A DNA stretch of 64,000 nucleotides from Minisyncoccota bacterium (GCA_041648395.1 JBAZPC010000002.1:29181-93180), one strand, 5' to 3'; shown: positions 1 through 50,212, numbered from the stretch's first letter. Numbers and translations: made by a program. The notes: generated from the sequence alone by a model not told the origin.

Positions 1-589
1 GCGCGGGAGAAAAATATCTTGCCGGAACTTTTTTGATAATTTTCGGCTCGCCGTATGCTTTAACGCTAATAGAGAGGATTGATTCTTTGCCTGCCCTGAG
101 CGAAGTCGAACGGGCAACCATTCTTTCTGCCACTTCTTTTTGCACCATCAAAACCATTCGCGACGGCTGCTTTGCCCCGAGCGAAGTCGAGGGGTCCCCT
201 TCCAAAAATTTTCGCAAAAAATGCGAGGTGATATAGTAAGGAATATTGGCAACAATCTTGTAGTCAGTAGTCAGCATTGAGTAGTCAGTAAATTTTAATA
301 TATCGCCGTTTATTATTTCTAAATTAGAGTATCCCACTTTCCGGCGATCGCTAGATTTTGGTATACTCTTAAATTTTTCATTCAGATAATCAGCCAGTCG
401 TTCATCTTTTTCAATGGCAATCACTCGTCCTCGCGGCACCGCTTTCAGTAGCGCCTCTGTTAAAATTCCCTTGCCTGGCCCGACTTCCAAAATAATATCA
501 TCCGGCTTTAAATCCGCCGTCTTCATGATGTCAGCGATAATTTTTTTAGAATTAAGAAAATTTTGTCCGAGAAATTTATTCGGCTTCAT
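1..589 (-). CDS. rsmA: 16S rRNA (adenine1518/1519-N6)-dimethyltransferase RsmA/KsgA, N-terminal ~196 aa; gene runs off the window start
   Basis: Own translation of the minus strand from ATG(rc) at 587-589 gives MKPNKFLGQNFL...LEVGPGKGILTEALL (SAM-binding motif) ...NIPYYITS. It is absent from the ORF track because no stop lies in the window. Its ATG overlaps the pcrA stop (ATGA). It contains an in-frame heptamer repeat at 260-292. Confidence 0.75.
   Translation of the reverse strand, partial: MKPNKFLGQNFLNSKKIIADIMKTADLKPDDIILEVGPGKGILTEALLKAVPRGRVIAIEKDERLADYLNEKFKSIPKSSDRRKVGYSNLEIINGDILKFTDYSMLTTDYKIVANIPYYITSHFLRKFLEGDPSTSLGAKQPSRMVLMVQKEVAERMVARSTSLRAGKESILSISVKAYGEPKIIKKVPARYFSPA
260..292. 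repeat. Heptamer tandem repeat (tagtcag/cattgag units; AGTAGTCAGTA family), in frame within ksgA
   Basis: It encodes the TDYSMLTTDYK segment. Confidence 0.8.
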
Positions 590-2514
590 AAAATTTCAAT
601 GATTTCTTCTTCTATTAATTGATTTTCGTTTTTCTCCAACTTCATCAAATGCTCCGGGATGTCCGACAAAAAGCGCGACGGGAGATTCATTTGCCGGCCG
701 CCGAAAATTGTGCGGACAATACTGAACGACAAAAATAATTTTTCCTTGGCGCGCGTGAGCGCGACATAAAATAATCTTCGCTCTTCCTCCTCTTTTTCCG
801 CGTTATTCGCGCCGAAGCCAGAGTGCGGAAATAATCCTTGCTCCATCCCGACAATAAAAACATTTTCAAACTCCAGCCCCTTGGCGGCATGGACGGTCAT
901 CAAACGCGCTCCTTCTTTTTTATTTTTGTCGCCAAAATCCAAATTATCTTGGTCGCTCATTAATGCCGCGTCGGTAATCATTTTTTCCATTCCCAACGGT
1001 GTCTCAAGCGAGTCATAGCGCGAGGCGATACTTACCAATTCCTTTAAGTTCTCCAGCCGTTCTTTGTCGTCATCGCTTCCGTTTTCCAAAAAATCCTGGT
1101 AGTCGGTTTTTTTCATAATAAATTTAACCACTTCCGACGGCCGGCTATTTTCAATCTTTTCTTTTATTTGGTCAAGAACAGCCAGAAAATCCCCTATTTT
1201 TTTCTCCATCTCTATCGGCAGTTTTTTTTGAGCAAAATAATTAAGGATACTCACTTTGCCGATTCCGCGCGGAGGCACATTGATAACCCTTTTGAAATCA
1301 AGGAGGTTGTCGCGATTCAAGGCCGCCCGAATGAAAGAAAAAATATCTTTTACTTCTTTGCGTTCATAAAATCTCGTGCCGAGAACATTGTACGGAATCC
1401 CGCGCTTCAAACATTCTTCCTCAAAAATCCGCGACTGGAAATTCGCCCTGTATAAAACAGCAACCTCCGAAGGTTTAACCTTCGTTTTAATCAGCTCTTT
1501 TATTTTATGAACGACAAATTCCGCCTCCTCTTTCTCGTTCATCGCCTCAAAAAGAGAAATCACCGCGCCTTCTTCGCGGGTGGCAGAAAGTTTTTTCTCC
1601 TTTCTCATTTTATTTTTTTCTATCACTCTTGCCGCCGCCTCCAAGATATTTTTCGTTGAGCGATAATTTTCTTCAAAGACAATAGTTTTAACTTCCGGAA
1701 AATCTCTTTCAAAGTTTATGATGTTTCTGAAGTCCGCTCCCCGCCAACCATAAATCGCCTGGTCAATGTCGCCGATGACGCAAATATTTCTGTGCTTCTC
1801 CGCTAAAATTTTTGAAAGTTCATATTGGCTTTTGTTTGTGTCTTGATATTCGTCAATTAAAATATATTGCCATAAGTTTTGGTAATGGCTTCTCGCCTCT
1901 TTGTCTTTTTTAAAAAGAAGAACGGTTTTTAAAATAAGGTCGTCAAAATCCAACGCCTGATGAGCCTTTAGTTTTTTTTCATATGCATCCCAGATATTGC
2001 TTAATTTTCTCGGGAAAAAATCCCGGCCGGCGATTTCTTCAAAATCCTCGCAGCTTATCAGGTCGCCCTTGTATCTTGAAATCATATTCAGCATTTTATC
2101 CGGTTGAAACTGCTTTGGGTCAATGCCCAATTCTCTGATTGATTCTTTGATGACTTCCAGCGCGTTTTCTTTGTCAAAAATGGAAAAATTTTTGTTTATG
2201 CCCAGGCCTCTCCCGTGATTGCGCAAAATAAAAACCCCAAGGGAGTGGAAGGTGCTGACGAACGGAGTAGTCAGTATTGAGTAGTCAGTAGTCAGTAATT
2301 TATTTATCCTTTCCTTCATCTCGCCCGCCGCCTTGTTGGTGAAAGTGATGGCCAAGATTCGCTCCGGCTCCGTTCCCTGCTCCACCAAATGGGCGACCCG
2401 ATGGGCGATGGCTCTGGTTTTGCCCGCTCCGGCTCCGGCCAAGACAAGCAACGGTCCATTTTTATGCAAGACCGCTTCCTTTTGAGCTTCATTTAGTCCC
2501 TCTAAAAGATTCAT
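586..2514 (-). CDS. pcrA: ATP-dependent DNA helicase PcrA/UvrD family
   Basis: Walker A GAGAGKTR, UvrD motifs (TFHSLG, DEYQDTN, VGDIDQAIYGWRGA) and 642 aa length. It contains an in-frame heptamer repeat at 2266-2298. Confidence 0.9.
   Translation of the reverse strand: MNLLEGLNEAQKEAVLHKNGPLLVLAGAGAGKTRAIAHRVAHLVEQGTEPERILAITFTNKAAGEMKERINKLLTTDYSILTTPFVSTFHSLGVFILRNHGRGLGINKNFSIFDKENALEVIKESIRELGIDPKQFQPDKMLNMISRYKGDLISCEDFEEIAGRDFFPRKLSNIWDAYEKKLKAHQALDFDDLILKTVLLFKKDKEARSHYQNLWQYILIDEYQDTNKSQYELSKILAEKHRNICVIGDIDQAIYGWRGADFRNIINFERDFPEVKTIVFEENYRSTKNILEAAARVIEKNKMRKEKKLSATREEGAVISLFEAMNEKEEAEFVVHKIKELIKTKVKPSEVAVLYRANFQSRIFEEECLKRGIPYNVLGTRFYERKEVKDIFSFIRAALNRDNLLDFKRVINVPPRGIGKVSILNYFAQKKLPIEMEKKIGDFLAVLDQIKEKIENSRPSEVVKFIMKKTDYQDFLENGSDDDKERLENLKELVSIASRYDSLETPLGMEKMITDAALMSDQDNLDFGDKNKKEGARLMTVHAAKGLEFENVFIVGMEQGLFPHSGFGANNAEKEEEERRLFYVALTRAKEKLFLSFSIVRTIFGGRQMNLPSRFLSDIPEHLMKLEKNENQLIEEEIIEIL
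2266..2298. repeat. Heptamer tandem repeat (AGTAGTCAGTA family), in frame within pcrA
   Basis: It encodes the LLTTDYSILTTP segment. Confidence 0.8.
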
Positions 2515-2759
2515 GCGACCATCATAGCACCATTTCCGCTATCCACAGGTTTGTTTTGGCTTGGCTAAAAAGGTTGACTTTTGGGTCGGTTCTGGTAGGA
2601 TAGGAATGTTGTTGAAAGGTTGATATAGAGAGAAATTACCAGTAAACCCTTCATTTTAAACATATTTCTACTAACTCTCAAAGTCCTGCTGACATTCCAA
2701 GTAGCAAGAAGCAGGGCCAAATATCGCAATTTTTTGTTGCCTATGGTGGCTTAGCTCTT

Positions 2760-3740
2760 TTGCTTTTGGCTTTTTTTGTCTTTTCCTCTACGGCTCACGC
2801 TGGCTTTTTTTCTTTTTTAAATAATATCCTTGGTTCAAAAAACCAAGAAAAACCGATTTATAATTCACAAACCGTTTCCCTTTTGGAAGGGTCGCTATCT
2901 CCCGAATCGGGAACAGGCAAAGGCGGAGGAGATATAACAATTGTCAATAATGCCCTTTTGCCCGACTCTGGACCGTTGGGCACTATCGCCGACATAAAAG
3001 ATAGGAGGGCAACGCCCGACCAGATAAGCATTTATGTGGTTAGAAAAGGGGATAACATTTCCGAAATAGCAAAAATGTTTGATGTTTCGGTAAACACTAT
3101 AATTTGGGCAAACAGTTTAGCTTCCGGGGAATCAATAACTCCTGGTCAAATTCTCGTCATTCTTCCTGTTTCTGGCATTCAGTACACGGTCAAAAAAGGC
3201 GACACGGTGAAAAGTATTGCAAAAAAATTAAGCAGTGACATAACAGAAATCCTCCAATATAACGGCTTGGCGATAAACGACAATTTAACTGAAGGCCAAA
3301 CAATAATAATTCCTAACGCAGATTATTCGGAAACGGAAAAAAGCCCGCCTTCCACTCAATCCATAAAACCAAAAATTTCAAACACGCCGTTTTATGCCGG
3401 ATATTATATGAGGCCCATTGAGGAGGGAAGAAGGTCCCAGAAAATTCATGGATACAACGCCGTTGACTTGGCTGATTCATGCGGAACGCCGGTTATGGCC
3501 GCCGCTAGCGGAGATGTTCTTATAGGCAGAGGCACGGGGTGGAATTCCGGATACGGGCATTATATTGTTCTCGTTCATTCGAACGGCACGCAAACTCTCT
3601 ACGCGCACTTGAGCGAAAACATCGCCACGGAAGGATGGCATGTGACGCAAGGACAAATAATTGGCTACATTGGTTCAACTGGCAAGTCAACTGGCTGCCA
3701 TGTCCATTTTGAAATCCGCGGCGCCCAGAATCCGTTTTAA
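2760..3740 (+). CDS. Secreted peptidoglycan hydrolase with two LysM domains and a C-terminal M23 peptidase domain
   Basis: N-terminal signal/TM segment, two LysM-like segments (YVVRKGDNISEIAKMF..., YTVKKGDTVKSIAKKL...), and an M23 motif GYNAVDLA...GHYIVLVHSNGTQTLYAHL...TGCHVHFEIRG. Confidence 0.85.
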   Translation: MLLAFFVFSSTAHAGFFSFLNNILGSKNQEKPIYNSQTVSLLEGSLSPESGTGKGGGDITIVNNALLPDSGPLGTIADIKDRRATPDQISIYVVRKGDNISEIAKMFDVSVNTIIWANSLASGESITPGQILVILPVSGIQYTVKKGDTVKSIAKKLSSDITEILQYNGLAINDNLTEGQTIIIPNADYSETEKSPPSTQSIKPKISNTPFYAGYYMRPIEEGRRSQKIHGYNAVDLADSCGTPVMAAASGDVLIGRGTGWNSGYGHYIVLVHSNGTQTLYAHLSENIATEGWHVTQGQIIGYIGSTGKSTGCHVHFEIRGAQNPF

Positions 3741-3777
3741 GTATTTAACCGACTTACGATGTCGGTTTTAGTTAAAA
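3711..3777 (+). repeat. Cassette boundary repeat R1: ~30-bp core gaaatccgcggcgcccagaatccgttttaa plus hairpin aaccgacttacgatgtcggtt
   Basis: The core overlaps the last 10 codons and stop of the M23 peptidase gene. A related core recurs at 4769-4798 and 5324-5353, and the hairpin recurs at 5352-5372. Confidence 0.8.
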
Positions 3778-3780
3778 TTT

Positions 3781-4770
3781 ATGAAAAAACGAAATCAAGC
3801 ACAAACAGGCATTGCCCTTATAGAAATCGTCTTAACAATAATGATAATTACTGTAATTGGTGGAATCATTTATTTTTATTGGCAGAAAAATATAAATTAT
3901 ACAGAAATTCAACAAATAGAAAGTCAGCAACAAGCCGTGCAACAGAAATTCGAATGCAATTTATCACCGAAAGAAAATTACATTATAGTTAATGGTAAAG
4001 TAAATTTCCCTCGTGGTATTAAAAACTATACTGATTACGAAATCGTTGTTGCATCCGATACATACAAAATTTCTCTGGATGGCAATTTTTGTGCAAGTGT
4101 TCCTAATGGAGTTTTTATAATTGGAGTGTCTTCGAGTAACGAAAATGATTTTTCTTTACTTTCTGTGATTGTCTCAGAAAAAGATACTGATATCATTATT
4201 AACTCTAAAACAACAGCAGTTGGATTACTTTTTACAACACCTTATTTTCTAAACAACGACCCGGTTAAGGCAACTGAAATTATTAAACAGATAGAAAATA
4301 ATTCAAAAGTAAAAATATTATCCGACCAAATTGAAAACAAGGAAACATTATCTATTAATGATATTGAAAACAGGCCAATATCCGACGCATTTAAAAACGC
4401 TCTGAACTCTGTATTGGGGACAAAAAACGATAACAATAATTCTAAAATTCAACCCCAGGTCATAAATTTTGAAATGACCATAAAACCAGCAAATTATTAC
4501 AAAAACCAAAAAGGAGAAAGTTACATTTATGGGAAACTTATTGACTTAGATAAAAATGCACAAATTGAATTTAAAAAATATCTTGCAACGAAATATTTCG
4601 ATGTAGGATCTAGCCAAATTAGAGTTGACATAATAAACGATACTAAATTTCTGGGCAAACAACCACTTGATGACTACAATAACTTCGAGGTTAAAATTAA
4701 AGGCTATATTATAAGTATAAACGATATTGATAAAGTGCGCATTATTGCTAACGAAATTTTTGTATTTTGA
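3781..4770 (+). CDS. Type IV pilin/pseudopilin-like protein (prepilin-type N-terminal hydrophobic segment)
   Basis: The N-terminus MKKRNQAQTGIALIEIVLTIMIITVIGG resembles the prepilin cleavage/methylation segment. The rest is Asn/Ser-rich and extracellular-like. Confidence 0.5.
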   Translation: MKKRNQAQTGIALIEIVLTIMIITVIGGIIYFYWQKNINYTEIQQIESQQQAVQQKFECNLSPKENYIIVNGKVNFPRGIKNYTDYEIVVASDTYKISLDGNFCASVPNGVFIIGVSSSNENDFSLLSVIVSEKDTDIIINSKTTAVGLLFTTPYFLNNDPVKATEIIKQIENNSKVKILSDQIENKETLSINDIENRPISDAFKNALNSVLGTKNDNNNSKIQPQVINFEMTIKPANYYKNQKGESYIYGKLIDLDKNAQIEFKKYLATKYFDVGSSQIRVDIINDTKFLGKQPLDDYNNFEVKIKGYIISINDIDKVRIIANEIFVF

Positions 4771-4798
4771 AATCCGTGGAGCAAAGAACCCGTTTTAG
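4769..4798 (+). repeat. Cassette boundary repeat R2 (core only): gaaatccgtggagcaaagaacccgttttag
   Basis: About 75% identical to the R1 and R3 cores. The pilin-like gene's stop codon TGA lies inside it. No hairpin follows. Confidence 0.7.
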
Positions 4799-4836
4799 TT
4801 TGATTTTTAATTTAAGCGTGGTATCATCATCGCTAT

Positions 4837-5070: not shown

Positions 5071-5073
5071 AAA

Positions 5074-5319: not shown

Positions 5320-5323
5320 ATTA

Positions 5324-5372: not shown

Positions 5373-5384
5373 CTAAATTAAATA

Positions 5385-5660
5385 ATGAAAAATAATTCTG
5401 TTAAATTTAATGATGGCTGGTGTTTTGCTACAGTAAATGGGCGTTTAGCTGAAATTTATTTTGATAAAAAACGTGGAATTTTTGCACACTGCTATATAGA
5501 CAAAAAAGAATACAACAAATCAGAACAAAAAATGATTGCTTCGGATATTAAAAAATATAAATTTGTTTATAGAAATGGATATTATTTTGATAAAATACAG
5601 AAAGTAAAACACAAAAAAGTTAGCATCTATAAAATTTTTCCAGAGATTAGAAAAATATAA
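5385..5660 (+). CDS. Hypothetical protein (91 aa), last ORF of the cassette array
   Basis: ORF starting 12 bp after the R3 hairpin. No recognisable motif. Confidence 0.3.
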   Translation: MKNNSVKFNDGWCFATVNGRLAEIYFDKKRGIFAHCYIDKKEYNKSEQKMIASDIKKYKFVYRNGYYFDKIQKVKHKKVSIYKIFPEIRKI

Positions 5661-5675
5661 AAAATTACTCAATTT

Positions 5676-7214
5676 TTACTTCGGCCGGTATTGCAATGCT
5701 TCTAAAATGTGTTTTTCTTGAATTTCTTCGGCACCCTCTAAGTCGGCGATGGTGCGCGCCAGCTTGATGACGCGATGGTAGGCCCGACCGGAAAGGTCAA
5801 GCCGTTTGGCGGCTTGGTTTAAAATGTTGGTCACACTATCTGAAAGCGGGCAAAATTTTTTCAGATCTCTGACTCCCATCTCGCTATTAGTTAAAATTTT
5901 CATACTTTTCCCGCCCTTGGCGGAAAATCTTTCACCTTGAATTTTTCTCGCCTTTATCACCCTTTCTTGAATTGCCTTTGACGGCTCGCCTGAAATTTTT
6001 TCGTCCGACAATTTTTCATGCTCCACCTGCGGCACTTCCAGCCATAAATCAATCCTGTCCAAAATCGGGCCGGAGACCTTTCTGGAATAACGCATCAAAG
6101 AACCCTGCGAACAAACGCAAGGTTTTGTTTTTGAATTCAGATTTCCGCAGGGACAGGGATTCATGGCGCAAATGAGAATGAAACGCGCCGGAAAGGTGAG
6201 CGACTCTTTGGCGCGGGAAATGTTTATAACACCGTCTTCTAGCGGCTGACGCAGGGCCTCAATCACCCGCCTTTCAAATTCCGGGAACTCATCAAGAAAC
6301 AAAACACCGCGGTGGCTAAGAGTAATTTCGCCCGGCCGCGGATAAGTTCCTCCGCCGACCAACGCCACATAAGATGAAGTATGATGCGGACTGCGAAACG
6401 GCCTCTCGCTCAAAAAATCTTCCTGCAACGCGCCGGCCACACTGTGAATCAAGGTCGTTTCCAAAACTTCCTCAAAAGAAAAAGGAGGCAGAATGGCGGC
6501 GAGCGCCTTGGCCAACATGGTCTTCCCTGTGCCGGCGGGACCGACCATTAGAACATTATGTCCGCCGGCGGCGGCGATTTCCAAACCGCGCTTGGCGCTC
6601 TCTTGCCCTTTGATGTCAGAAAAATCAAAATTTATTTCTTCAATTAAGTCCTTAAAATCAATTTGCGTTTCCGGTTGTTCGTTAAGATTAAAATCTTTTT
6701 TGCTGTCCAAATGATTTACTATTTCACTTAATGAATCGCAGCCGAAAATTTTTATTCCTCTCACAAGGGCGGCCTCCTTCGTATTTTTATTCGGCACAAA
6801 AATTTCTCCAAAGCCCTGTTTCTGGGCGTATTTTACCAAAGCCAAAGTTCCTTTGACGGGCCGAATCGCTCCGTCAAGCGCCAGTTCGCCGAGAAAAATT
6901 TTTCCGTTCACGTCAAAAGAAATTTGTTTTGAGGCGAGAAGATAAGCCAAAGCGATGGCTAAGTCAAAAACCGGCCCTTCTTTTTTCAAGTCGGCCGGCG
7001 CTAGAGAAATCGTCACTCTTTGATTTTTCTTTTGCGGAGAAACGAATCCGGAATTTTTGATGGCCGCTGAAATTCTGTCTTTTGATTCTTCCACCGCCTT
7101 GTCCGGAAGGCCGACGACGGAAAAAGAATGCAAACCCTGCATCAAATCAACTTCAACTTCTATAATATTGGCTTTTAGACCTGTAACTTGGGCGGAGTAA
7201 ACTTTAACAGCCAT
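5676..7214 (-). CDS. comM: YifB/ComM family Mg-chelatase-like AAA+ ATPase
   Basis: N-terminal Lon-like domain, Walker A GPAGTGKT, and a ChlI-like core with MNPCPCG arginine finger/zinc region. 512 aa. Confidence 0.85.
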   Translation of the reverse strand: MAVKVYSAQVTGLKANIIEVEVDLMQGLHSFSVVGLPDKAVEESKDRISAAIKNSGFVSPQKKNQRVTISLAPADLKKEGPVFDLAIALAYLLASKQISFDVNGKIFLGELALDGAIRPVKGTLALVKYAQKQGFGEIFVPNKNTKEAALVRGIKIFGCDSLSEIVNHLDSKKDFNLNEQPETQIDFKDLIEEINFDFSDIKGQESAKRGLEIAAAGGHNVLMVGPAGTGKTMLAKALAAILPPFSFEEVLETTLIHSVAGALQEDFLSERPFRSPHHTSSYVALVGGGTYPRPGEITLSHRGVLFLDEFPEFERRVIEALRQPLEDGVINISRAKESLTFPARFILICAMNPCPCGNLNSKTKPCVCSQGSLMRYSRKVSGPILDRIDLWLEVPQVEHEKLSDEKISGEPSKAIQERVIKARKIQGERFSAKGGKSMKILTNSEMGVRDLKKFCPLSDSVTNILNQAAKRLDLSGRAYHRVIKLARTIADLEGAEEIQEKHILEALQYRPK

Positions 7215-8497: not shown

Positions 8498-8919
8498 AAT
8501 AATGGGTCTTGCGACTTTAAATATTTTTCCGCTTTTTGTATAACCATTTTAACAAAATTCAAATAATCGCTGGCCTCTTTATTGGAAATTATTATTCCGC
8601 CTTCATATAAATCTAGATTTCTTTTCCTTCTCATTTTGTCGCCTATTATTCCCACATTTTTATCGTTCAAAATTATAGATAATTTCTCTAAAATTTTAAC
8701 ATGGTGGCCCTTTCTGCTTTTAATCCTGTGGCCATGCAACGCTATTAAAGCAATGCCTATTTTTATTAGGGCATTATACGAGAAATTAAAAATCACCTCC
8801 TCTTTTTTATTTTTGGCGGCAATATGAAAATCTTTCAACGCGTTGCTAAAATATTTAGAGATTATTTTCTTGTCAAATTTATTTTTCTGGAAAAATCTTG
8901 AGTCAAAACTTATGTTCAT
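8494..8919 (-). CDS. HEPN-domain protein (toxin-like half of a HEPN/MNT pair)
   Basis: 141 aa helical protein with a 4-bp overlap to the upstream nucleotidyltransferase gene. The arrangement is typical of HEPN/MNT modules, but the R-x4-6-H motif is not clear-cut. Confidence 0.5.
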   Translation of the reverse strand: MNISFDSRFFQKNKFDKKIISKYFSNALKDFHIAAKNKKEEVIFNFSYNALIKIGIALIALHGHRIKSRKGHHVKILEKLSIILNDKNVGIIGDKMRRKRNLDLYEGGIIISNKEASDYLNFVKMVIQKAEKYLKSQDPLF

Positions 8920-9461
8920 ATTATTTTTATGTATTTTGAGGAAAAAATGTCTTTTATAAAATGATCCCTTTTTTGTTTTTTTCTTTTAAATTCTTTTTCC
9001 GTCATTTCAATGGAATTTATTTCTCTCCCTGTTAATTCTTGGATTTCTAAAATGGCCTTTTGCAATTTTATCATATCAAAATCGCCAATAATCAAAAGAT
9101 CAATGTCGCTTTCCGAAACAAACCCGCCTTTGGCGTATGAGCCGAAAATGTAAGCAGAATCAATTCCTTTTATCTTTTTTAGCTTATCAGTCAAAATTTT
9201 TTCAAACCCAAATCCTTTCAAAATAATTTTTTTGTATTCTTTGAGAAACGGGTATTTTTTATTCAAAGAGAAAAATCTTTCTTTTCCGCGAAATTCATCT
9301 AGGAGCAAGCCGTCTTTTTTAAGTTCCAAAAGCTTTTTGTGCAGATTTGACGGATTTTCTTTTATTATTTTTGCCAACTCATTGACGTAAAACTTTTCGC
9401 CTTCATTGAGAAAGAAAAAATTGAGTGTTTTTTGAACCAATTTTGACCGCAGTGATATCAT
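8916..9461 (-). CDS. Minimal nucleotidyltransferase (MNT) with N-terminal wHTH
   Basis: GS-x9-DxD motif (IFGSYAKGGFVSESDIDLLI) preceded by a winged-helix-like N-terminus. It overlaps the HEPN gene by 4 bp. Confidence 0.7.
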   Translation of the reverse strand: MISLRSKLVQKTLNFFFLNEGEKFYVNELAKIIKENPSNLHKKLLELKKDGLLLDEFRGKERFFSLNKKYPFLKEYKKIILKGFGFEKILTDKLKKIKGIDSAYIFGSYAKGGFVSESDIDLLIIGDFDMIKLQKAILEIQELTGREINSIEMTEKEFKRKKQKRDHFIKDIFSSKYIKII

Positions 9462-14760: not shown

Positions 14761-16248
14761 TTATTTTACAAACCATTTTTTGCGGATTACCTCTATCTCT
14801 TTTCTCTCCACTTCCTCCTTTGTTCCCTTCGCTTTTTTGCCCAGCTCCTCAAGCTCTTTTTCAGACAACGCGTTCAGCTCTTTTGCCTTGTTTTCCAGCC
14901 ATTCTTCCATGTTTTTTGACGGCTCATCAAGCACTTCTTCTAAAAGAGCGTGTAAAATAAAGCCGATTTTTGGCCCCGGTTTCACGTCCAACAATTCCAT
15001 AAGCCGATTTCCGTCAATTTTTAGCATCCCCACGGAAAGCGGCGCTCTCATTGCCTCATCTATCATTGATTCATATTTGCGCAGGCGATAAGGCGACTCC
15101 TTAGGCACGCCCATGCCAATCCGGTCGCTAAAACGAACCTTCATTAAATCCCAAATATTTTCCGGTCCGACATTGCGAACAGTCCTGCGCACAGCAGATA
15201 AAGTAATCTTGTCCGTATCGGAAAAAAACAAATGATAACGGACAAGCTTTGCGATAAGTTCTATGTCCTTTTTGGAAAATTTAAGACGAGATAAAATCTT
15301 AACGGACATTTTTCCGCCAATGACGTCATGTCCGTAAAAAGTCCAGTCCTTGTTTGCTTCGTTCCATTGTCTAGTCGCCGGTTTGGCGACATCATGCAAA
15401 AGAGCCGATAAACGCACAAAAAATGGCCATTTTTTGGACACGGCGTGATCTAAAGCCCTTAAATTATGCTCCCAAACCGTGAATTTATGGTCTTTATTTT
15501 GCTCTATCCCGATTCCCTCTTCCAGCTCCGGAATGACATATTTCAAAACCCCGAGTTCGTTCATTGCGCGTATCCCTTGATTCGCGTTGTCTGACATAAT
15601 GATTTTTTCAAACTCATCTTTGATACGCTCTTTGGCAATCATTTCAAGTAAATGCGCTTTTTTCTTTATGGCTTCCTGTGTTTCATGTGAAATTTTCCAG
15701 CCCAATTCCGCGCTAAATCTTATAGCGCGCAATATCCTCAAGGCGTCTTCTTCAAACCTTTCTTCGGGATTACCAACGGCTTTGATAATTTTATTCTTCA
15801 AATCATCTTGGCCGCCAAACAAATCTATAATTTTATTACTGATTACTGACGACTGATTACTGACTACTGCCATCGCCATGGCATTTATTGTAAAATCCCT
15901 CCTTTTCAGGTCGTCCTCAAGGTTACTTGTGAAACGGACTTCATCTGGATGGCGCTTGTCAGAATATTTGGACTCCAAGCGAAATGGCGTTATTTCTATA
16001 ATTTTCAATGTTTCATCAGAAACATCTTCATTTATTACTCCAACGGTGCCGAATTTATTCTCGTAAATTGTTTTATGAAATAACTCCTGAATTTGCTCTG
16101 GTGTGGCATTTGTCGTTATATCCCAGTCCTTTGGTTTCGCGTGTAACAATAAATCACGCACGCATCCGCCAACCAAAAACGCCTCAAAACCAGCACTTTG
16201 AAGAACTTTAATAGCTTGAGAGATTATTGGAGGAATTTTGCTTCCCAT
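14761..16248 (-). CDS. cca: CCA-adding enzyme / poly(A) polymerase-family tRNA nucleotidyltransferase with HD domain
   Basis: GGCVRDLLL...RDFTINAMA head domain and HD motif (LLHDVAKP). It contains an in-frame heptamer repeat at 15836-15869. Confidence 0.8.
   Translation of the reverse strand: MGSKIPPIISQAIKVLQSAGFEAFLVGGCVRDLLLHAKPKDWDITTNATPEQIQELFHKTIYENKFGTVGVINEDVSDETLKIIEITPFRLESKYSDKRHPDEVRFTSNLEDDLKRRDFTINAMAMAVVSNQSSVISNKIIDLFGGQDDLKNKIIKAVGNPEERFEEDALRILRAIRFSAELGWKISHETQEAIKKKAHLLEMIAKERIKDEFEKIIMSDNANQGIRAMNELGVLKYVIPELEEGIGIEQNKDHKFTVWEHNLRALDHAVSKKWPFFVRLSALLHDVAKPATRQWNEANKDWTFYGHDVIGGKMSVKILSRLKFSKKDIELIAKLVRYHLFFSDTDKITLSAVRRTVRNVGPENIWDLMKVRFSDRIGMGVPKESPYRLRKYESMIDEAMRAPLSVGMLKIDGNRLMELLDVKPGPKIGFILHALLEEVLDEPSKNMEEWLENKAKELNALSEKELEELGKKAKGTKEEVERKEIEVIRKKWFVK
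15836..15869. repeat. Heptamer tandem repeat (AGTAGTCAGTA family, opposite orientation), in frame within cca
   Basis: It encodes AVVSNQSSVISN, inserted between RDFTINAMA and the iiDpfgG motif. Confidence 0.8.
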
Positions 16249-25073: not shown

Positions 25074-25155
25074 GAGTATTTAGTAGCCAGTATTTTAGTA
25101 GCCAGTATTTTTTAAAAAATTATTCTGACTACTCTTTACTGATTACTGATTACTA
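25074..25155. repeat. Heptamer/15-mer repeat block (agtagccagtatttt x2 plus an inverted ctgactact...tactgattactgattact), intergenic hup-rny
   Basis: It has direct and inverted copies of the same family. Confidence 0.75.
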
Positions 25156-40884: not shown

Positions 40885-40899
40885 ATAATTAAGTATAAA

Positions 40900-40926
40900 G
40901 CAGTCAGTATTCAGTAGCCAGTATGT
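40900..40926. repeat. Heptamer repeat (agtcagt attcagt agccagt), intergenic yebC / RM gene
   Basis: Same family, different context. Confidence 0.7.
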
Positions 40927-40985
40927 TAGCCACCGAGTGGCGCACAGATTGAAAAAACACTAAAAATGAAGGATAATTAAGCGCA

Positions 40986-43664
40986 ATGGATAAAAATTCA
41001 GCCAAACAAAAAATTCAGGAACTTGTTGAAAAATACGAGGAAGTTTTGAAATCAGGCAAGATAAAGGGATATACCGAGCAGGAAACAAAAAATGGTTTTA
41101 TTGAGCCGCTTTTTAAAATTTTGGGCTGGGACATGACGGATAAAAACGAAATTTCCCTAGAAGAGCAGATTTCCGGCGACCGCGCCGATTATGGCTTTTA
41201 TTTAAACGGCCGGGCCAAATTTTATCTTGAAGCAAAAAAGTTGTCGGCTGACCTGTGGAATGAAAAATTTGCCGAACAATGCATAAAATATTCTTGGAAC
41301 AAAGGCGTCACATGGGCGGTTTTAACTGACTTTGAAAATGTAAAAGTTTTTTGCGCCCAAGTGATAGACAAAAACTTAAACGACAAACTTCTTTTTGATA
41401 TTTCTTACAAAGAATTTATTGAGAGATTTGACCAGCTTTATTTATTATCCAAAGAGGCCTTTGAAAAGGACTTATTGGATGAGTATGCCACCAAAATCGG
41501 CAAAAAACTGCAAAAAGTTTCCGTCGGGGCAAAGCTGTATGAAGATTTGGACGAGTGCAGAAAACTTTTAACAAAAGACCTTCATACTTGGAATAAAGAC
41601 GTGCCGGATGACTTGTTAGATGAAGGCGTACAAAAGATTTTAGACAGATTGGTTTTTATCAGAGTGGCGGAAGACAGGGGAATTGAGTTATCAACTCTCA
41701 AACCGATGATTAACCAATGGAAAACCAGCGGCAAGAATGAAACTCTTTACGAATCAATGGTTGGAAAATTTAGAGAGATGGACGAGACATATAATTCCAA
41801 CTTATTTAGCCCGCATCCGTTTGAAAAATGGGAAGACCACAGCGACGCCACAAAAAAGGTCGTAAAAATTCTCTACGGCGAGGAGGGTTATTACGAATAC
41901 GACTTTAAAGTTATGCCGGCGGATATTTTGGGAGGCGTCTACGAAAGTTATCTCGGGCATCGTCTGCAAAAAGCCAAAAAGGGGCTAACCATAAACAAGG
42001 ACGCCAAGAAGAGAAAAGAGCAGGGGATTTATTACACGCCGGAATTTATTGTTGACTACATAGTTAAAAACGCGCTGAAGCCGGTTTTGGACAAATGCCA
42101 AAGCGTTAACGATTTAAAAAAGATAAAGGTTTTAGATCCGGCTTGCGGTTCCGGTTCTTTTTTATTGAAAGCCGTTGATTTGATAAGCGATAAATACAAA
42201 GAGTTCGGCAATCATAGCGAATTCACAAAGTTGACGATATTGCACGAAAATATCTACGGCGTGGATTTGGACGAAAAAGCGATAGAAATCGCGCGGCTTA
42301 ATTTGCTGATAAACGCGCTGGAGAAAAGGATGAAATTGCCGATTTTAAAAAATATCAGAAACGGCAATTCGCTTATTTCCGGCACGGACGAAGAACTGCA
42401 AAAATATTTCGGCAAAAATTTCCGCGACAAAAAACCATTCAACTGGCAAGAAGAATTTCCGGAAGTATTCAAGGAGGGCGGTTTTGATGTAATAATAGGC
42501 AACCCGCCGTATGTTCAATCTAGAAACCTAAATGACGACGAGCGACATTTTTATTGGAGCAAGTATTTAACTGATACTAACCATTCTGATATTTATTCAT
42601 TTTTTATTGAAAAATCAATAGATATTTTGAAAGAGAAAGGATTTTTGAGCTTTATTACTCCAAATACATGGTTACAAACACCGAGCTTTAAATCTGCTAG
42701 AAAAAAGATTTTTGACGAGAGTAAAGTATTAAAAATCCTGACCTTTGATGAGGGGATAAAAATATTTGGTGACGCCCAAGTATCGAGTGTTGTTTTTGTT
42801 TTACAAAGAGAAGCAGACAACAAAGCAATAGGAAGCAGTCATATAGAGATAGAAAAAGGCGGGATTAACCAAAAGATTAATGAGATAAGTAAAATTAAGC
42901 AAAAAGAAATTGACTCAGAAAAAGGATTCAATATTTTTACAAGCCAAAAACCTCAAAAGATCTTAGATAAAATACTATTAAATTCTGTTGTTTTGGATGA
43001 TATTGGTGAAATTGTTGGTGGCTTAAGAACGGGAGACGATAAAAGATTTTTAAAAGATAAATTAAGCGACCCAGATGATAGAAAATTACTCAGAGGACGA
43101 AATGTAAGCCGTTATTGTTTAGAATGGAATGGAGAATATGTTTGGTATAAACCAGAGATGATGAAGGTTAAACAAGCAGCAGCACCCAAAGAAGCAAAAT
43201 TTTTTGAGGCGAAAGAAAAGCTATTGGTTAGAATGATAACTGGCGGACAACTTATTGCTACCTTTGACGACAATGGCTTTTACTTTTTACAAGATAATCT
43301 TATTTTACCAAAAGAAAAATATAATATTAAATATTTACTAGCCGTTTTAAATTCAAAATTGTCAGGGTTTATAGTTAAAAATTCCGTGTCTAATATAGCA
43401 ATAACACAATCTTTGTTAAAGAAGTTCCCAATTTTTAAAATAGATTTTTCAAATCTAAAAGAAAAAGACAAGCATGACGAGTTAGTTAAATTAGCCGATA
43501 AAATGTTAGATCTAAATAAAGAACTTCAAAAAGTGGAAGAAAATTCTGATAAATGGCATTCTATAAAATCAGAAATAGAAAAAACGGACAAAAAGATAGA
43601 TGAGGAGGTTTATAAATTGTATGGATTGACGGAAGAGGAGATAAGAGTTGTGGAGGGGAAATAA
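40986..43664 (+). CDS. Type IIG restriction-modification enzyme (fused PD-(D/E)xK endonuclease + gamma-class N6-adenine methyltransferase + target-recognition region)
   Basis: N-terminal D...EAK nuclease-like core (GDRADYGFY...FYLEAKKL), MTase motif I LDPACGSGSFLL and motif IV IIGNPPYV, then a long C-terminal region. 892 aa. Confidence 0.7.
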   Translation: MDKNSAKQKIQELVEKYEEVLKSGKIKGYTEQETKNGFIEPLFKILGWDMTDKNEISLEEQISGDRADYGFYLNGRAKFYLEAKKLSADLWNEKFAEQCIKYSWNKGVTWAVLTDFENVKVFCAQVIDKNLNDKLLFDISYKEFIERFDQLYLLSKEAFEKDLLDEYATKIGKKLQKVSVGAKLYEDLDECRKLLTKDLHTWNKDVPDDLLDEGVQKILDRLVFIRVAEDRGIELSTLKPMINQWKTSGKNETLYESMVGKFREMDETYNSNLFSPHPFEKWEDHSDATKKVVKILYGEEGYYEYDFKVMPADILGGVYESYLGHRLQKAKKGLTINKDAKKRKEQGIYYTPEFIVDYIVKNALKPVLDKCQSVNDLKKIKVLDPACGSGSFLLKAVDLISDKYKEFGNHSEFTKLTILHENIYGVDLDEKAIEIARLNLLINALEKRMKLPILKNIRNGNSLISGTDEELQKYFGKNFRDKKPFNWQEEFPEVFKEGGFDVIIGNPPYVQSRNLNDDERHFYWSKYLTDTNHSDIYSFFIEKSIDILKEKGFLSFITPNTWLQTPSFKSARKKIFDESKVLKILTFDEGIKIFGDAQVSSVVFVLQREADNKAIGSSHIEIEKGGINQKINEISKIKQKEIDSEKGFNIFTSQKPQKILDKILLNSVVLDDIGEIVGGLRTGDDKRFLKDKLSDPDDRKLLRGRNVSRYCLEWNGEYVWYKPEMMKVKQAAAPKEAKFFEAKEKLLVRMITGGQLIATFDDNGFYFLQDNLILPKEKYNIKYLLAVLNSKLSGFIVKNSVSNIAITQSLLKKFPIFKIDFSNLKEKDKHDELVKLADKMLDLNKELQKVEENSDKWHSIKSEIEKTDKKIDEEVYKLYGLTEEEIRVVEGK

Positions 43665-44735: not shown

Positions 44736-44841
44736 CTTTTTAAGGTTTAAGATAAAATGCTTGTAATAAATTAAAGAAACTCAACCTAATCTCTATAACT
44801 TTTCCATTATAGCAACTCCCGTATTGTTTGTCAACAAAAAG

Positions 44842-46646: not shown

Positions 46647-46870
46647 TTTAATTAAAGTTTGCTACTATCAAATAAGCAATTTAAAATCCTATAAAACGGA
46701 TAAACCGCTGCAAAATCCTCTAAGCAACAAGACATTGTCTTATCGGGACTCTTTGAAGGACATTTTGGTTTGCGCCTTTAGGCGACATTTCTGGAATTAT
46801 CCTTATAAAGAAATTCTAAACTTTTGGCACCCATGTTAAAAGAGTTGCTTGGAGGATTTTGAAGCGGTTT

Positions 46871-48535
46871 TTAAAGTTCTATCACTCTTTCCAGTTCATC
46901 AAGAGACGTCACACCCTTGATGACTTTTAAAATTCCGTCCTGCTGCATATTTAAAATTCCCTGCCCTTCCGCTTCTTTCGCTATTTCCGTTTCATTCGGC
47001 ATTTTCATAATAAGTTCTTCAATTTTTTCGTCTACCAATATGGCCTCAAAAATTCCAATTCTGCCTTTGTATCCGATATTGTTGCATGCGGGACACCCCT
47101 TGCTACGCCAAATAGAAACTTCGCCTGTACCTGCCTGCGCAGGCAGGGTTGGCGCCCATTTTTCTATTTTTATTTTTTCTTCCGGCGAGGGCGAAGATTT
47201 TTCCTTGCAGAAATCGCAAAGTTTTCTTGTTAGTCGCTGGGCTAAGGAAATATTGATGGCCGGAGCAATGATGTTCGGATTAACTCCGAGGTCTATAAGA
47301 CGGGGAATGGTGCCGGCGGCGTTGTTGGTATGAAGAGTGGAAAAAACGAGATGGCCGGTTAAGGCCGCGTTCATGGCTATTTTGGCTGTTTCCAAGTCCC
47401 TTATTTCGCCGACCATGATGACGTCCGGGTCTTGGCGAAGAATAGCCCTCAATCCTTCAACAAAGCCGTATCCCTTATCCTCTTCAACTTGGGTTTGGGA
47501 AATCCCCTTGAGATGATATTCCACCGGGTCTTCCAATGTTATTATTTTTATTTCCGAAGAGTATATTTTTTTTAGGAAGGCATAAAGGGTGGTTGTTTTT
47601 CCTGAACCGGTAGGTCCTGTGTTTATAATCATTCCGTTGGGTTTTTTAATTTCTTTCATCAGTATTTGGTACAAGTTTTCTTCTATCCCCAACTCTTCCA
47701 AGGGGACGGAGATTGATTTTGGATTCAAAACTCTCATGACGATTGTCTCGCCATAAGAGCCGGGAATGACTGAAGTTCTTATTTCTATTTCAGTTTCTTT
47801 TATATGAATGCTAAAACGGCCATCTTGCGCCTGGTCGTGGATATTAAGTTTGAGCCCAGAAACAAGTTTTATTCTTGAGAGGAAAAGATTAAACACTTTT
47901 GGTTCAAATGAAAATATGTCGTTAAGCACGCCGTCTAAACGGAAACGCAAACGGATTTGCGTTTCTTGCGGTTCTATATGGATATCGGACGAATTGACGG
48001 CGATGGCGCCGGCTAAAATTATTTCCAGAATTTCCGAAGTGCGGCGGTTTGTTTTTGAAGGTGTGATAGATGAAAAAATTTTTTTCAAGTCATCCAGCGA
48101 TTTTGCCTCTTTTATAAACTCTTCCAATTTTTCCGCCGAAACGTCTATTATTCCAGCTGACATTTCCGTAAAAGCCGGCACCTCGGCGTACTTTTTCCAG
48201 GTCTTCTCCAGCCCTATTTCCGAAACCATGAAAATTTCCGGCTTGTAGCCCTTTTCTTCCAAGTCCTTAAGAATGCCGCTGGTCGCGTCAAGGCCGGGAT
48301 TCAAAACGGCTATTTCAAGTTTCTTTCCTTTTTTTTGGAAGATGGCCATCTTCGCTTTTCTGGCCGTTTCTTCCGGTAATATGATTAAGGCGTCAAGGCC
48401 TACGGTTGTTGTGGCGAGATTTAAATAGGGGATTTTGTATTTTTCGGAAAGAATCATGGCCAAATCCTCAGCTTCCTGTTCGCGCATTTCTTTCAACTTC
48501 TCTTTTTGTTTTTTTTCTGATGAAAAGGTGACCAT
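46871..48535 (-). CDS. pilB: Type IV pilus / type II secretion assembly ATPase (PilB/GspE family)
   Basis: Walker A GPTGSGKTTTL, Asp box, His box and a C-terminal CxxC...CxxC zinc motif (CDFC...CPAC). Confidence 0.85.
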   Translation of the reverse strand: MVTFSSEKKQKEKLKEMREQEAEDLAMILSEKYKIPYLNLATTTVGLDALIILPEETARKAKMAIFQKKGKKLEIAVLNPGLDATSGILKDLEEKGYKPEIFMVSEIGLEKTWKKYAEVPAFTEMSAGIIDVSAEKLEEFIKEAKSLDDLKKIFSSITPSKTNRRTSEILEIILAGAIAVNSSDIHIEPQETQIRLRFRLDGVLNDIFSFEPKVFNLFLSRIKLVSGLKLNIHDQAQDGRFSIHIKETEIEIRTSVIPGSYGETIVMRVLNPKSISVPLEELGIEENLYQILMKEIKKPNGMIINTGPTGSGKTTTLYAFLKKIYSSEIKIITLEDPVEYHLKGISQTQVEEDKGYGFVEGLRAILRQDPDVIMVGEIRDLETAKIAMNAALTGHLVFSTLHTNNAAGTIPRLIDLGVNPNIIAPAINISLAQRLTRKLCDFCKEKSSPSPEEKIKIEKWAPTLPAQAGTGEVSIWRSKGCPACNNIGYKGRIGIFEAILVDEKIEELIMKMPNETEIAKEAEGQGILNMQQDGILKVIKGVTSLDELERVIEL

Positions 48536-48553
48536 GTTTACTTTTATATTATC

Positions 48554-49108
48554 TTATAAAACAACTTCTTTCAATGCCTGCTTCATTTTTATTTCCGCCG
48601 ATGAAAAATTTTCAAAGGGTCCGGATATAAAATATTTTTCTTCAATGTCAGCGTTTATTTTTTCTGCTAGAAAGGGCAGAATTTTCTTCTCCTTGCCGTT
48701 TTCTGTCGCCATGCAGTAAACGCCGTTTTCTTCCTGCCAAAAAACGAAAGAAAGCGGCTGGGGCGGAAAGAAGCCGTTTATTTTTTGGGCTATTTTGTAG
48801 AAAATTTTATTGTCAGCGTATTGAAAATTAGTTTTTTCAAAGTCCTCGGCTGAAATGAAAGTCCACGAGCTTTGCAAATCTTCATTTATGCGAGTGCGCG
48901 CCATGGTCCGACCGAAAAGTTGAGCAAAGGGAATTTTCTGTTCATCGCTGACTTCTTCAGAGAGGTCTTCGTAATCAATATTAATGACAAAAAAATCATC
49001 ATCGTTGTCATAGCTCACCTCCTTCACCTTATATCTGTCTTTCGGCAAACGAATAGAGGAGCGCTTGGCTGAATCAAAGTCCTTAAAGTTTTCACCAATA
49101 TCAGGCAT
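48554..49108 (-). CDS. Hypothetical protein
   Basis: 184-aa ORF next to pilB. Confidence 0.3.
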   Translation of the reverse strand: MPDIGENFKDFDSAKRSSIRLPKDRYKVKEVSYDNDDDFFVINIDYEDLSEEVSDEQKIPFAQLFGRTMARTRINEDLQSSWTFISAEDFEKTNFQYADNKIFYKIAQKINGFFPPQPLSFVFWQEENGVYCMATENGKEKKILPFLAEKINADIEEKYFISGPFENFSSAEIKMKQALKEVVL

Positions 49109-49145
49109 TAGTTAATTCCTAGCACGCAGGCCGGTGTTTTCAAGC

Positions 49146-49173
49146 TTGACAAAATATGCCAATCTGCTATAAT
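49146..49173 (+). promoter_or_regulatory. Near-consensus sigma70 promoter TTGACA-N16-TATAAT
   Basis: ttgacaaaatatgccaatctgctataat, with the RBS aaaggagg and ATG 49213 following. Confidence 0.6.
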
Positions 49174-49212
49174 CTAGACAGAAAAATAAACTAGATCTTT
49201 AAAGGAGGATTT

Positions 49213-49701
49213 ATGAAAAAAATATCAGCATCGGTTCTTTTTGTTGTTTTTATTGCAATAGTTCTTATCGCAACCGGATGCGCAGGTCTCATGGAAACAA
49301 GAAGAGGAGAAACCCGCACAAACCAAGGCGGAGCTGTTGGTTTAGGGTTGGGACTGGCATTTTGCCACAAAAACCCCTATTGCATCGGGGCGGCAACACT
49401 TTTAGGCCTGTTCACGGGAAGCTTTCTTGGCACCGCCGAGAGCGACAAAATCGCCGAACCGAAAGTTGTTGAGGTCGGCGACAAAAAAGTGATTATGGTG
49501 CCGACAGGAATACCCTTTCCCTTTCAAAATCCAAATATCCAAACAAATATCCAGCAGCAGCCGTATTCGAATGAAGAGTGTCGTTTTCAGCCAACAATAG
49601 AATCCCAGGTTGAGTGTTTTCGCGAGAAGACGCGGAACCTAAGGAGCCTAACTGATGCGGAGAATGAATATGCGCGCGAACGGGCGCGCAGAAGATATTA
49701 G
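49213..49701 (+). CDS. Lipoprotein, unknown function
   Basis: Signal peptide with lipobox LIATGC. Confidence 0.5.
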   Translation: MKKISASVLFVVFIAIVLIATGCAGLMETRRGETRTNQGGAVGLGLGLAFCHKNPYCIGAATLLGLFTGSFLGTAESDKIAEPKVVEVGDKKVIMVPTGIPFPFQNPNIQTNIQQQPYSNEECRFQPTIESQVECFREKTRNLRSLTDAENEYARERARRRY

Positions 49702-49756
49702 TCCTTTAGGGGCAGGAAGAAATTCCTGCCCGTTTGTTTTATAATGGAGCAAAGTT

Positions 49757-50212
49757 ATGAAAATTTCTGTTTCAAAAAAGCAGACGAGTAAAATAGCCAA
49801 AGAATTAGCAAAAACCCTTCGACAAGCTCAGGGTAAAAAATTTTTCAACAAAGCTGTTGTTATTGGTCTGTCCGGCGAACTCGGTAGCGGGAAGACGGCT
49901 TTCTGCCAAAGTTTCGCGAAGGCGCTGGGTGTGAAAGAAAAAGTTCACAGCCCAACATTTGTAATTATGAAAAAGTATCCAGTAGTCAGTAGCCAGTATT
50001 CAGTATTATTTCACTTTGATATGTACAGAATTAAAAATCAAAAAGACATTATTACTCTCGGTTGGAAAAAAATAATTTCTGATTCCAGAAACATAATTTT
50101 AGTTGAGTGGGCGGAAAATATCAGAAAAGTTTTTCCCAAAAAACATTTTTGGATAAAAATGTCCCATCTGGGCAAAAAAAGCAGAGGTATTGACATTAAA
50201 TCCGTAAAATAG
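49757..50212 (+). CDS. tsaE: tRNA threonylcarbamoyladenosine biosynthesis protein TsaE
   Basis: P-loop GLSGELGSGKT, HSPTF and HFDMYR motifs. It carries two in-frame repeat insertions: TLRQAQG (49811-49840) and VVSSQYSV (49981-50007). Confidence 0.75.
   Translation: MKISVSKKQTSKIAKELAKTLRQAQGKKFFNKAVVIGLSGELGSGKTAFCQSFAKALGVKEKVHSPTFVIMKKYPVVSSQYSVLFHFDMYRIKNQKDIITLGWKKIISDSRNIILVEWAENIRKVFPKKHFWIKMSHLGKKSRGIDIKSVK
49811..49840. repeat. Hairpin-unit repeat aaaacccttcgacaagctcagggtaaaaaa, in frame in tsaE
   Basis: It encodes TLRQAQGKK. The same cccttcgacaagctcgggg core forms terminator hairpins at 24715-24750 and 44461-44496. Confidence 0.6.
49981..50007. repeat. Heptamer tandem repeat (agtagtcagtagccagtattcagtatt), in frame within tsaE
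   Basis: It encodes the VVSSQYSVL segment. Confidence 0.8.

Follow-up and report, generated by a model that had tools for sequence, protein, structure and literature searches.

The 64,000-nucleotide stretch of Minisyncoccota bacterium DNA analysed here (GCA_041648395.1, JBAZPC010000002.1:29181-93180; hereafter the window) carries, at six loci, tandem arrays of a 7-nt unit with the consensus TACTGAC (complement GTCAGTA), and at four of these loci the array lies in frame inside a housekeeping gene. Judging from sequence comparisons, the arrays are probably a slippage-type heptanucleotide simple sequence repeat (SSR) of the ACTGA-core class, filtered by reading frame and by the tolerance of protein loops. 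They represent a known class of heptamer repeats in a new setting and are not a new mobile element. What is new is the host lineage, the residence of arrays in catalytic domains of essential enzymes with a turnover quantised in 21-nt steps, and the conservation of array positions at which the unit has been replaced. Homologues of the encoded CCA-adding enzyme (CCA) and TsaE come from sources named Candidatus Terrybacteria, Paceibacter, Parcubacteria and Patescibacteria group; by these affinities the host is a Parcubacteria (Patescibacteria) genome, and the G+C content of the window is 40%.

The repeat is confined to the six loci. Searching the window for AGTAGTCAGTA with at most one mismatch gave 20 matches, every one within these loci, against 0.19 expected from dinucleotide-preserving shuffles (maximum 2). 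A period-7 consensus scan over 28 nt returned exactly the same six loci, locus 4 as two arms, and no others, whereas shuffles gave 0.2 loci; all the loci listed in an earlier note on this DNA were thereby recovered, with no addition. Tandem Repeats Finder assigned them a period of 7, 4.4-5.0 copies and 75-82% matches. The six loci make seven arrays in 64 kb, each with 4-5 units and a length of 27-37 nt, which is not a whole multiple of 7. When 31 units were phased on the strand that reads TACTGAC, the counts of the consensus bases were T30 A29 C31 T31 G22 A22 C15. Therefore, the conserved portion of the unit is TACT(GA), with TACT nearly invariant and the final bases variable (GAC, GGC, GAT, GAA, CAA); units in the window include TACTGAC, TACTGAT, TACTGAA and TACTGGC, and their order and number are different at every locus. 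Over 4453 nt, the cca array included, the sequence agrees at 100% identity with a Logan assembly made independently (SRR8449827, L001), and an artefact of assembly or chimera formation is thereby ruled out, one of the outcomes that would have undone the earlier proposal. A search of the window against Rfam at gathering thresholds gave five tRNAs only, with no match at the arrays.

The earlier note described the family as lying in frame within four housekeeping genes and, in either orientation, between genes, and this description holds, with Pfam identifying each host and a single open frame at each genic locus. The four genic loci lie within conserved catalytic domains, in both orientations relative to the mRNA. 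In ksgA (RrnaAD/KsgA; 1-586, minus strand, extending beyond the window edge), the array at 259..292 on the minus strand is read as TTT ACT GAC TAC TCA ATG CTG ACT ACT GAC TAC, giving the peptide FTDYSMLTTDY in the variable segment between GDIL and YKIVANIPYY. In the adjacent pcrA/uvrD gene (UvrD/PcrA; 586-2514, minus strand), the array at 2266..2298 (minus strand) is read as TTA CTG ACT ACT GAC TAC TCA ATA CTG ACT ACT (LLTTDYSILTT); it stands between motif Ia (TFTNKAAGEMKERINK) and TFHS, and its first codons, TTA CTG, encode a conserved Leu-Leu. The cca array (15836..15870, minus strand; host gene for the CCA-adding enzyme at 14761-16248, minus strand) is read as GCA GTA GTC AGT AAT CAG TCG TCA GTA ATC AGT AAT, encodes AVVSNQSSVISN and makes longer the beta hairpin that follows RDFTINAMA. 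The tsaE array (49974..50007, plus strand; host gene at 49757-50212, plus strand) is read as TAT CCA GTA GTC AGT AGC CAG TAT TCA GTA (YPVVSSQYSV) and falls in the loop of a beta hairpin, between SPTF and HFDMYR.

In a perfect array of this unit, every frame of one strand meets TGA and every frame of the opposite strand meets TAG, so that all six frames contain stop codons. Six-frame translation found exactly one open frame at each genic locus. A variant unit keeps this frame open, namely TACTCAA in both ksgA and pcrA, TCG replacing TAG in cca, and AGC CAG TAT in tsaE. Since the reverse orientation also carries stops (TAG), a repaired unit is needed in every genic copy. In addition, because the unit is 7 nt long, only three-unit (21-nt) steps are viable in genes. 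Array-bearing and array-free orthologues of cca and tsaE do differ by exactly 21 nt, which equals three units or seven codons.

For cca, the window and two relatives (P0008, 77% identity; P0009, 74%) share five heptamers at one site after RDFTINAMA, whereas P0002, at 92% identity, and P0003-P0007 have none. The segment from RDFT to DLF is 28 aa long in the three array-bearing proteins versus 21 aa in P0002, a difference of exactly seven codons. The array is therefore lineage-restricted, relatives at 90-92% identity being without it, and the alignment of orthologues that the earlier note had proposed as a check comes out in its favour for this gene. For tsaE, the loop between SPTF and HxDxYR has 17 residues in 56 homologues and 10 residues in 17, and among 69 nearest-neighbour pairs, 26 differ in loop length by 7 aa, the pairs being phylogenetically non-independent. 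In the same test, with the same non-independence of pairs, CCA showed no clear excess of 7-aa steps (10 of 102 pairs). At the DNA level, L182 has the 10-residue tsaE form and no repeat. In the window, AGTAGYC units encode the 17-residue form, which is seven codons above the minimal Parcubacteria form; L179 (80% identical) uses CGTTACG x4 for it, and L180 uses CGAAATC x3.7; L181 has CGAAATC units with a nested palindromic insert. The CGTTACG x4 array of L179 is a local amplification of CGT TAT G, which is present in the array-free L182. Because the closest relatives are array-free or carry other units, ancestral protein sequence, the second outcome that would have undone the earlier proposal, is ruled out.

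Alternatively, each array might be a copy of a tiny cassette, about 21-33 nt long, that is mobile or spreads by gene conversion, pasted into permissive sites by template switching or ectopic conversion between arrays and similar to the Rickettsia palindromic elements (RPE) or to the small dispersed repeats of Nostoc. We think this very unlikely. The cca relatives that are 92% identical do differ by the presence or absence of exactly 21 nt, the ksgA and pcrA arrays, 2 kb apart and in direct orientation, have a common 24-nt composite that includes the same variant unit, an 18-mer of the repeat occurs in 46 viral contigs, and the GC-rich palindromic inserts nested in the tsaE array of L181 and the pcrA array of L167 show that arrays attract small insertions. 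However, no fixed element can be defined, as unit order and number differ per locus; terminal inverted repeats and target-site duplications were not seen; palindromy occurs at locus 4 only; the edges of the arrays blend into host codons (TTA CTG for Leu-Leu, TAT CCA GTA for Tyr-Pro-Val); and the L179 array was made from local sequence.

The two nested inserts are short. In L181 (10216-10330, tsaE) the heptamer array is interrupted by CTGCCCGCAGATGC...GCAGGCGGGC, and in L167 (about 3930-3990, pcrA) by TCGGGACCCATTTGGG; both lie inside in-frame arrays and are reminiscent of the small dispersed repeats in Nostoc heptamer tracts. At the protein level, the CCA homologues P0054, P0060, P0067, P0076 and others have the same hairpin with other low-complexity inserts (PADKAGKPGKNGE.., PAGQAGLPRK.., up to 25 extra residues), with lengths of 17, 24 and 31 residues. 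Three further CCA homologues (P0010, P0012 and P0015) have N-terminal extensions such as MAQWIERLASDQEIAGSNPAG. These extensions resemble, as we assume, a translated upstream tRNA gene, and if so they would be gene-calling artefacts in public data.

In pcrA and ksgA the site persists while the unit changes. The units that encode the pcrA loop following EMKERINKLL are TACTGAC in the window, TACTGGC in L161 (93% identity), TTACTAC in L125, AAGTTTC in L164, CTACCAA in L168 and AATTTCG in L167, and the array has equal length in the window and L161. Among pcrA loops of 16-18 residues, the lag-7 autocorrelation is 0.45-0.66 over a baseline of 0.27, and a value of 0.6 is reached by only 0.5% of control segments; the signal was not found in the 11-14-residue pcrA loops of more distant lineages. 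The ksgA site has TACTGAC units in the window; L164 has AATTTTC there, and L126 has CAAATCC. Other Patescibacteria thus use different heptamers (CGTTACG, CGAAATC, AAGTTTC) to encode the orthologous loops, so that the positions persist and the units turn over.

Compared with solved structures, the net change in protein length is +8 aa in CCA (6ibp), +4 in TsaE (6n9a), +3 in PcrA (1pjr) and 0/-1 in KsgA (6ifv). Two of the four arrays therefore mostly re-code native loops and are not pure insertions, the term insertion having been used in the earlier note for all four. As aligned, the arrays occupy natively variable loops, which they partly re-code. The proposed surface-loop placement is borne out by the models. 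In the AlphaFold (AF2) model of TsaE, with a predicted local distance difference test score (pLDDT) of 89, residues 76-82 form the hairpin loop between strands 71-75 and 83-88; in that of CCA (pLDDT 91), residues 127-138 form an extended hairpin with strands 125-130 and 136-141, and pLDDT falls below 50 at the hairpin tip (131-135) and nowhere else. The array-coded residues are thus modelled as surface beta-hairpin loops, and the alignments to PDB structures agree.

Under the slippage reading, arrays would be born, lost and re-born through unit-wise replication slippage or duplication at proto-repeats, for which the conserved codons at the array edges that are already unit-like, Leu-Leu TTA CTG in pcrA and Tyr-Pro-Val TAT CCA GTA in tsaE, may be the starting points. 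Purifying selection on the host gene would pass only 21-nt steps, in tolerant loops and with the stop codon mutated, for only loops would tolerate seven extra residues and the stop-breaking mutation would be obligatory. It is this filtering by frame and loop that would make the arrays look as if they had been inserted in frame into essential genes. The constraint that a 7-nt period places on the frame had been taken to argue for selection on the insertion; the argument does not carry, because the exact 21-nt differences between relatives are what unit-wise slippage together with purifying selection on the host gene predicts. A non-triplet tandem unit is also the classic architecture of phase-variable genes, and it had been suggested that the arrays could be hypermutable contingency tracts, which would switch their host genes on and off or vary the protein through unit number. 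This idea is scarcely credible here: the tracts are short (at most five units) and imperfect (75-82% matches), with interrupting variant units that stabilise them; their hosts are essential single-copy housekeeping genes; their sequence is identical in the independent assembly; and their length does not change among relatives at 74-93% identity, the cca array of the window being as long as those of P0008 and P0009 and its pcrA array as long as that of L161, although the proteins diverge by 7-26%.

The two remaining loci are intergenic, and both are in forward orientation immediately before a gene, 3 nt (hup) and 17 nt (yebC) before the ATG. Locus 4 lies between the rny stop codon and the start codon of hup (HU). 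Its left arm (25075..25111, minus strand) reads TACTGGC TACTAAAA TACTGGC TACTAAA TACTCAA TTT ATG on the minus strand and is the arm that ends 3 nt before hup, while the right arm (25122..25155, plus strand) lies 3' of the rny stop codon as the second half of an inverted pair. The right arm can pair with the hup leader arm in the rny-hup transcript, where the predicted hairpin has -29.8 kcal/mol (z = -2.6). Locus 5 (40899..40926, minus strand), in the 5' region of yebC, reads TACTGGC TACTGAA TACTGAC TGCTTTA TACTTAA TTAT ATG on the minus strand, and an orthologous array is present in the yebC leader of L179 (YebC 94% identity). Promoter and terminator scans of loci 4 and 5 gave nothing beyond chance on the relevant strand. 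On its other side, locus 5 is bordered by a divergent type IIG restriction-modification gene (Eco57I/MmeI-like, 892 aa; region 40927-43664), and an inverted repeat, GCCACCGAGTGGC, lies between the yebC heptamer array and the promoter-like site TTGAAA-17-GATAAT of that gene.

The forward position directly 5' of start codons recurs elsewhere. It is taken by all four intergenic arrays of L181, and among cross-phylum loci a start of an open reading frame (ORF) of at least 80 aa lies within 40 nt of the forward end in 42 of 127 cases versus 16 of 124 at the opposite end (Fisher p = 1.6e-4); with gaps below 15 nt the counts are 21 and 3. In Pyrinomonadaceae, all inverted pairs seen are arranged as (AGTAGTC)n-spacer-(GACTACT)n. 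Several of them separate two divergent start codons, so that either ATG has a forward array closely 5' of it, unlike locus 4 of the window, whose right arm is downstream of rny. A Shine-Dalgarno-like motif precedes only about 10 of the 51 main ORFs of the window. Across the gene starts of the window, e.g., 8916-9461 (minus strand), 27980 (plus strand), 32519 (plus strand) and 62070-62921 (minus strand), several are preceded at 6-10 nt by a TATAAT box, and boxes so close to start codons suggest leaderless mRNAs. From their setting, the non-coding arrays are probably either part of an unstructured leader without a Shine-Dalgarno motif or a regulator site of the kind proposed for the TAACTGA repeats discussed below. 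A leader array with a different unit also exists in the window: (TTAAAAA)4 at 50961-50988, directly upstream of an 1108-aa gene, is kept in L179 (7688-7714), a relative 80% identical.

Heptamer arrays are not peculiar to this genome. In 385 kb of Patescibacteria loci we found 80 arrays of period 7 or 14 versus 20 in shuffles, an approximately 4-fold excess, and neither period 6 (6 arrays, shuffle 1) nor period 8 (16, shuffle 13) was comparably enriched. The exact 18-mer (AGTAGTC)2.6 occurs at more than 120 loci of genome representatives from many phyla, with G+C contents from 35% to 71%, including Microcoleus, Tychonema, Pyrinomonadaceae and other Acidobacteriota, Caldilineaceae, Anaerolineae, Planctomycetota, Bacteroidetes, Firmicutes, Latescibacterota and others. 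At cross-phylum loci, those of Microcoleus and Tychonema among them, the window unit adjoins AATGACT, GTTGACT, CAGTGGT and CATTGGT, which we take to be classical units of the short tandemly repeated repetitive (STRR) type. The same 18-mer was found in 46 viral or proviral IMG/VR contigs (L183-L228), with (CAGTGAT)n in 91 and (TAACTGA)n in at least 120; heptamer arrays are therefore also carried on phage-like DNA. Among eight heptamer 18-mers scanned in viral contigs, these three ACTGA-core units were the commonest, the other five giving 2-26 matches. The proposition that an ACTG core suffices was rejected, since (ACTGTAG)n gave only 2 viral matches versus 46 to at least 120 for the ACTGA-core units. 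Units within a contig are closer to each other than units of different contigs (mean 2.29 vs 2.77 mismatches, permutation p < 0.001), although this may reflect base composition. The expectation of one unit per genome holds only in part: it agrees with the window and with L181 (AATT core), but not with the Patescibacteria contigs L136 and L143, which have many unrelated units side by side. On one Patescibacteria contig (L136/L155), arrays of different heptamers (AACTTTT, AAACTCA, TTTTCAC, TTTCGAA, AAAGATT, TCTCAAC) form dense clusters, each spanning a few hundred bases, at 290-990 and 5460-6450.

Several observations weigh against slippage as a full account. One unit is common to all six arrays in 64 kb, the other array-forming units here being A/T-only, and a single common unit is not expected from independent local slippage of arbitrary heptamers. 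The composite common to the ksgA and pcrA arrays, the 24-nt block ACTGACTACTCAATRCTGACTACT, includes the two-base stop-breaking variant TACTCAA, which also closes the hup leader array. In L164, ksgA and pcrA again carry mutually similar arrays, of another unit, AAnTTTC; this likeness suggests that arrays were copied from one another or are under a common constraint. Where CCA proteins have 74% identity, the nucleotides of the cca array match at about 81%, at least equalling the conservation of the flanking catalytic motif. In the yebC leader the array position is conserved with the unit replaced, (TAATTCT)n standing at the same place in L181 (YebC 76% identity). Given the common unit, the ksgA/pcrA block, the conservation of the cca array, the similarity within contigs and the viral ACTGA bias, a trans-acting reader and copying between arrays therefore retain some weight.

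Such a reader would be a lineage-specific trans-acting factor, for example a translational or RNA-stability regulator, for which the arrays would serve as cis-acting RNA or DNA recognition sites. The hup and yebC leader copies would then be the functional ones, the genic copies would be further sites or tolerated spill-over, and the units would change together as specificity drifts. A nearly invariant TACT core in one unit at all loci, forward arrays directly 5' of start codons in the window, in L181 and across phyla, the conserved position upstream of yebC with its unit replaced, the within-contig similarity and the abundance of ACTGA-core 18-mers in viral contigs are all in keeping with this, as are the regulatory role proposed for TAACTGA (PMC4679880) and the effects of leader deletions in Nostoc recF and recO (bioRxiv 10.1101/2022.06.06.494920). 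Nevertheless, we consider it rather unlikely, because no candidate factor was identified, the host genes have no common functional theme beyond housekeeping, the genic arrays occur in both orientations relative to the mRNA, L136 and L143 mix many unrelated units, the within-contig similarity could be base composition, and neither the 21-nt quantisation nor the local seeding of the L179 array needs a reader. A related proposal is concerted evolution of the dispersed arrays in Patescibacteria: the same loops of PcrA, KsgA, TsaE and CCA and the yebC leader bear arrays across lineages, with a unit that is lineage-specific and common within a genome, which would imply a trans-acting sequence-specific process. 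The agent could be a templated writer of 7-nt units at susceptible sites or a co-evolving reader, i.e., an RNA- or DNA-binding factor to whose specificity all sites would have to adapt. We judge this distinctly unlikely; if it were true, the ACTGA-core family seen across phyla would be the trace left by a single widespread form of the system.

The window offers an unusually clean natural experiment on the function and origin of heptanucleotide repeats: a minimal genome has the arrays in essential enzymes, viable changes are 21-nt steps with a repaired stop, and array-free, array-bearing and unit-replaced orthologues are all available. Should slippage alone be the explanation, it would show how the surface loops of core proteins can be reshaped time and again by an SSR whose unit is not a triplet. 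If instead a reader or writer is at work, the window would give a handle on the long-standing STRR/TAACTGA problem, with a bearing on translation initiation in Shine-Dalgarno-poor genomes.

Elsewhere in the window, ARAGORN reported a tRNA-Stop with anticodon tta at 60790-60863 (minus strand), which would be a possible suppressor tRNA. This was rejected, because the anticodon loop CUUUUAA is the canonical loop of tRNA-Lys(UUU); the gene is most likely a tRNA-Lys(UUU) called with a register error.

Among known systems, the RPE had been named as a parallel to the window arrays. RPE are palindromic elements of about 100-150 bp with a conserved sequence. Like them, the window arrays form a repeat family with members outside coding sequence as well as in-frame members in conserved protein genes, the latter at surface positions where the structure tolerates them. 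However, the window arrays are direct heptamers of 27-37 nt without a fixed sequence, their edges merge into host codons, and apart from the inverted pair at locus 4 they form no hairpin, so that the resemblance fails on length, palindromy and element sequence. Small dispersed repeats, or cassettes like miniature inverted-repeat transposable elements (MITE), of fixed length and conserved sequence were reportedly described by Elhai in 2008; the window has the precise 21-nt presence and absence in cca and tsaE and the 24-nt block in ksgA and pcrA, but no cassette common to all loci. Contingency SSRs are long, nearly perfect tracts in surface, virulence or restriction-modification genes, with a unit number that differs among close strains and thereby shifts the frame, and neither the tract nor the location was found here. 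Tandem repeats of Borgs, which are extrachromosomal elements of archaea, create disordered protein regions (PMC9879509). The likeness lies in rapidly evolving tandem repeats that arise independently in ORFs and add low-complexity surface segments, and the window differs in its 7-nt unit, in the viability of three-unit steps only and in the stop-codon repair of each array.

Heptanucleotide repeats have been known in bacteria since 1990. The cyanobacterial STRR heptamers CCCCAGT, TTGGTCA and CAACAGT were reportedly described in that year by Mazel et al. STRR arrays are mostly intergenic and were described in heterocystous cyanobacteria. The window arrays resemble them in the heptamer period, the dispersed arrays, the related units containing CAGT or ACTG and the slippage proposed for both; the STRR arrays are longer. 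For STRR and heptanucleotide SSRs we found no earlier description of in-frame residence in housekeeping enzymes or of 21-nt quantised presence and absence. Heptamers are the most abundant class of long SSR in bacteria, with polymerase slippage as the suggested cause, according to Mrazek 2007 as cited in PMC4679880 and PMC4692102. Searches of the literature for exact 14-mers gave only unrelated plant and fungal primer matches, and no paper tying heptamer repeats to Patescibacteria was found.

MacGregor (2015; PMC4679880) described the closest counterpart, the TAACTGA direct repeats, which occur in marine Beggiatoaceae, in cyanobacteria and in Bacteroidetes. Their forward copies have stops in all frames, and most lie a few nt before start codons without Shine-Dalgarno motifs; the few copies in ORFs are mainly at protein ends or in hypothetical proteins, and a site for a translational regulator was proposed (PMC4679880). 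In Nostoc, deletion of heptamer repeats in the recF and recO leaders had effects on expression, according to a preprint (bioRxiv 10.1101/2022.06.06.494920). The TAACTGA repeats and the window arrays both consist of 7-nt direct repeats with 2-6 copies per set at many dispersed loci, have forward stops in three frames, give ..SVIS.. peptides when read in reverse, and show a patchy cross-phylum distribution. The units differ by one base, TAACTGA versus TTACTGA or CTACTGA in the window, and the non-coding copies of both stand a few nt 5' of start codons without Shine-Dalgarno motifs. On the other hand, the window host is a Patescibacteria genome, the reverse orientation of its arrays also carries stops (TAG), four of its six loci are inside conserved catalytic domains of essential enzymes, and its orthologous sites carry other units in relatives. 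The period of 7, the dispersed recurrence and the ACTGA core with forward stops place the window arrays in the STRR/TAACTGA class of heptanucleotide direct repeats; the intergenic position 5' of starts that is typical of this class is found at both intergenic loci and in the cross-phylum copies, while four of the six window loci are genic. Compared with what was first recorded for this DNA, the motif is, on the evidence of its units, a one-base variant of the TAACTGA repeats (PMC4679880) and of the STRR type; it is spread over many phyla, and its intergenic copies stand forward and directly 5' of start codons.

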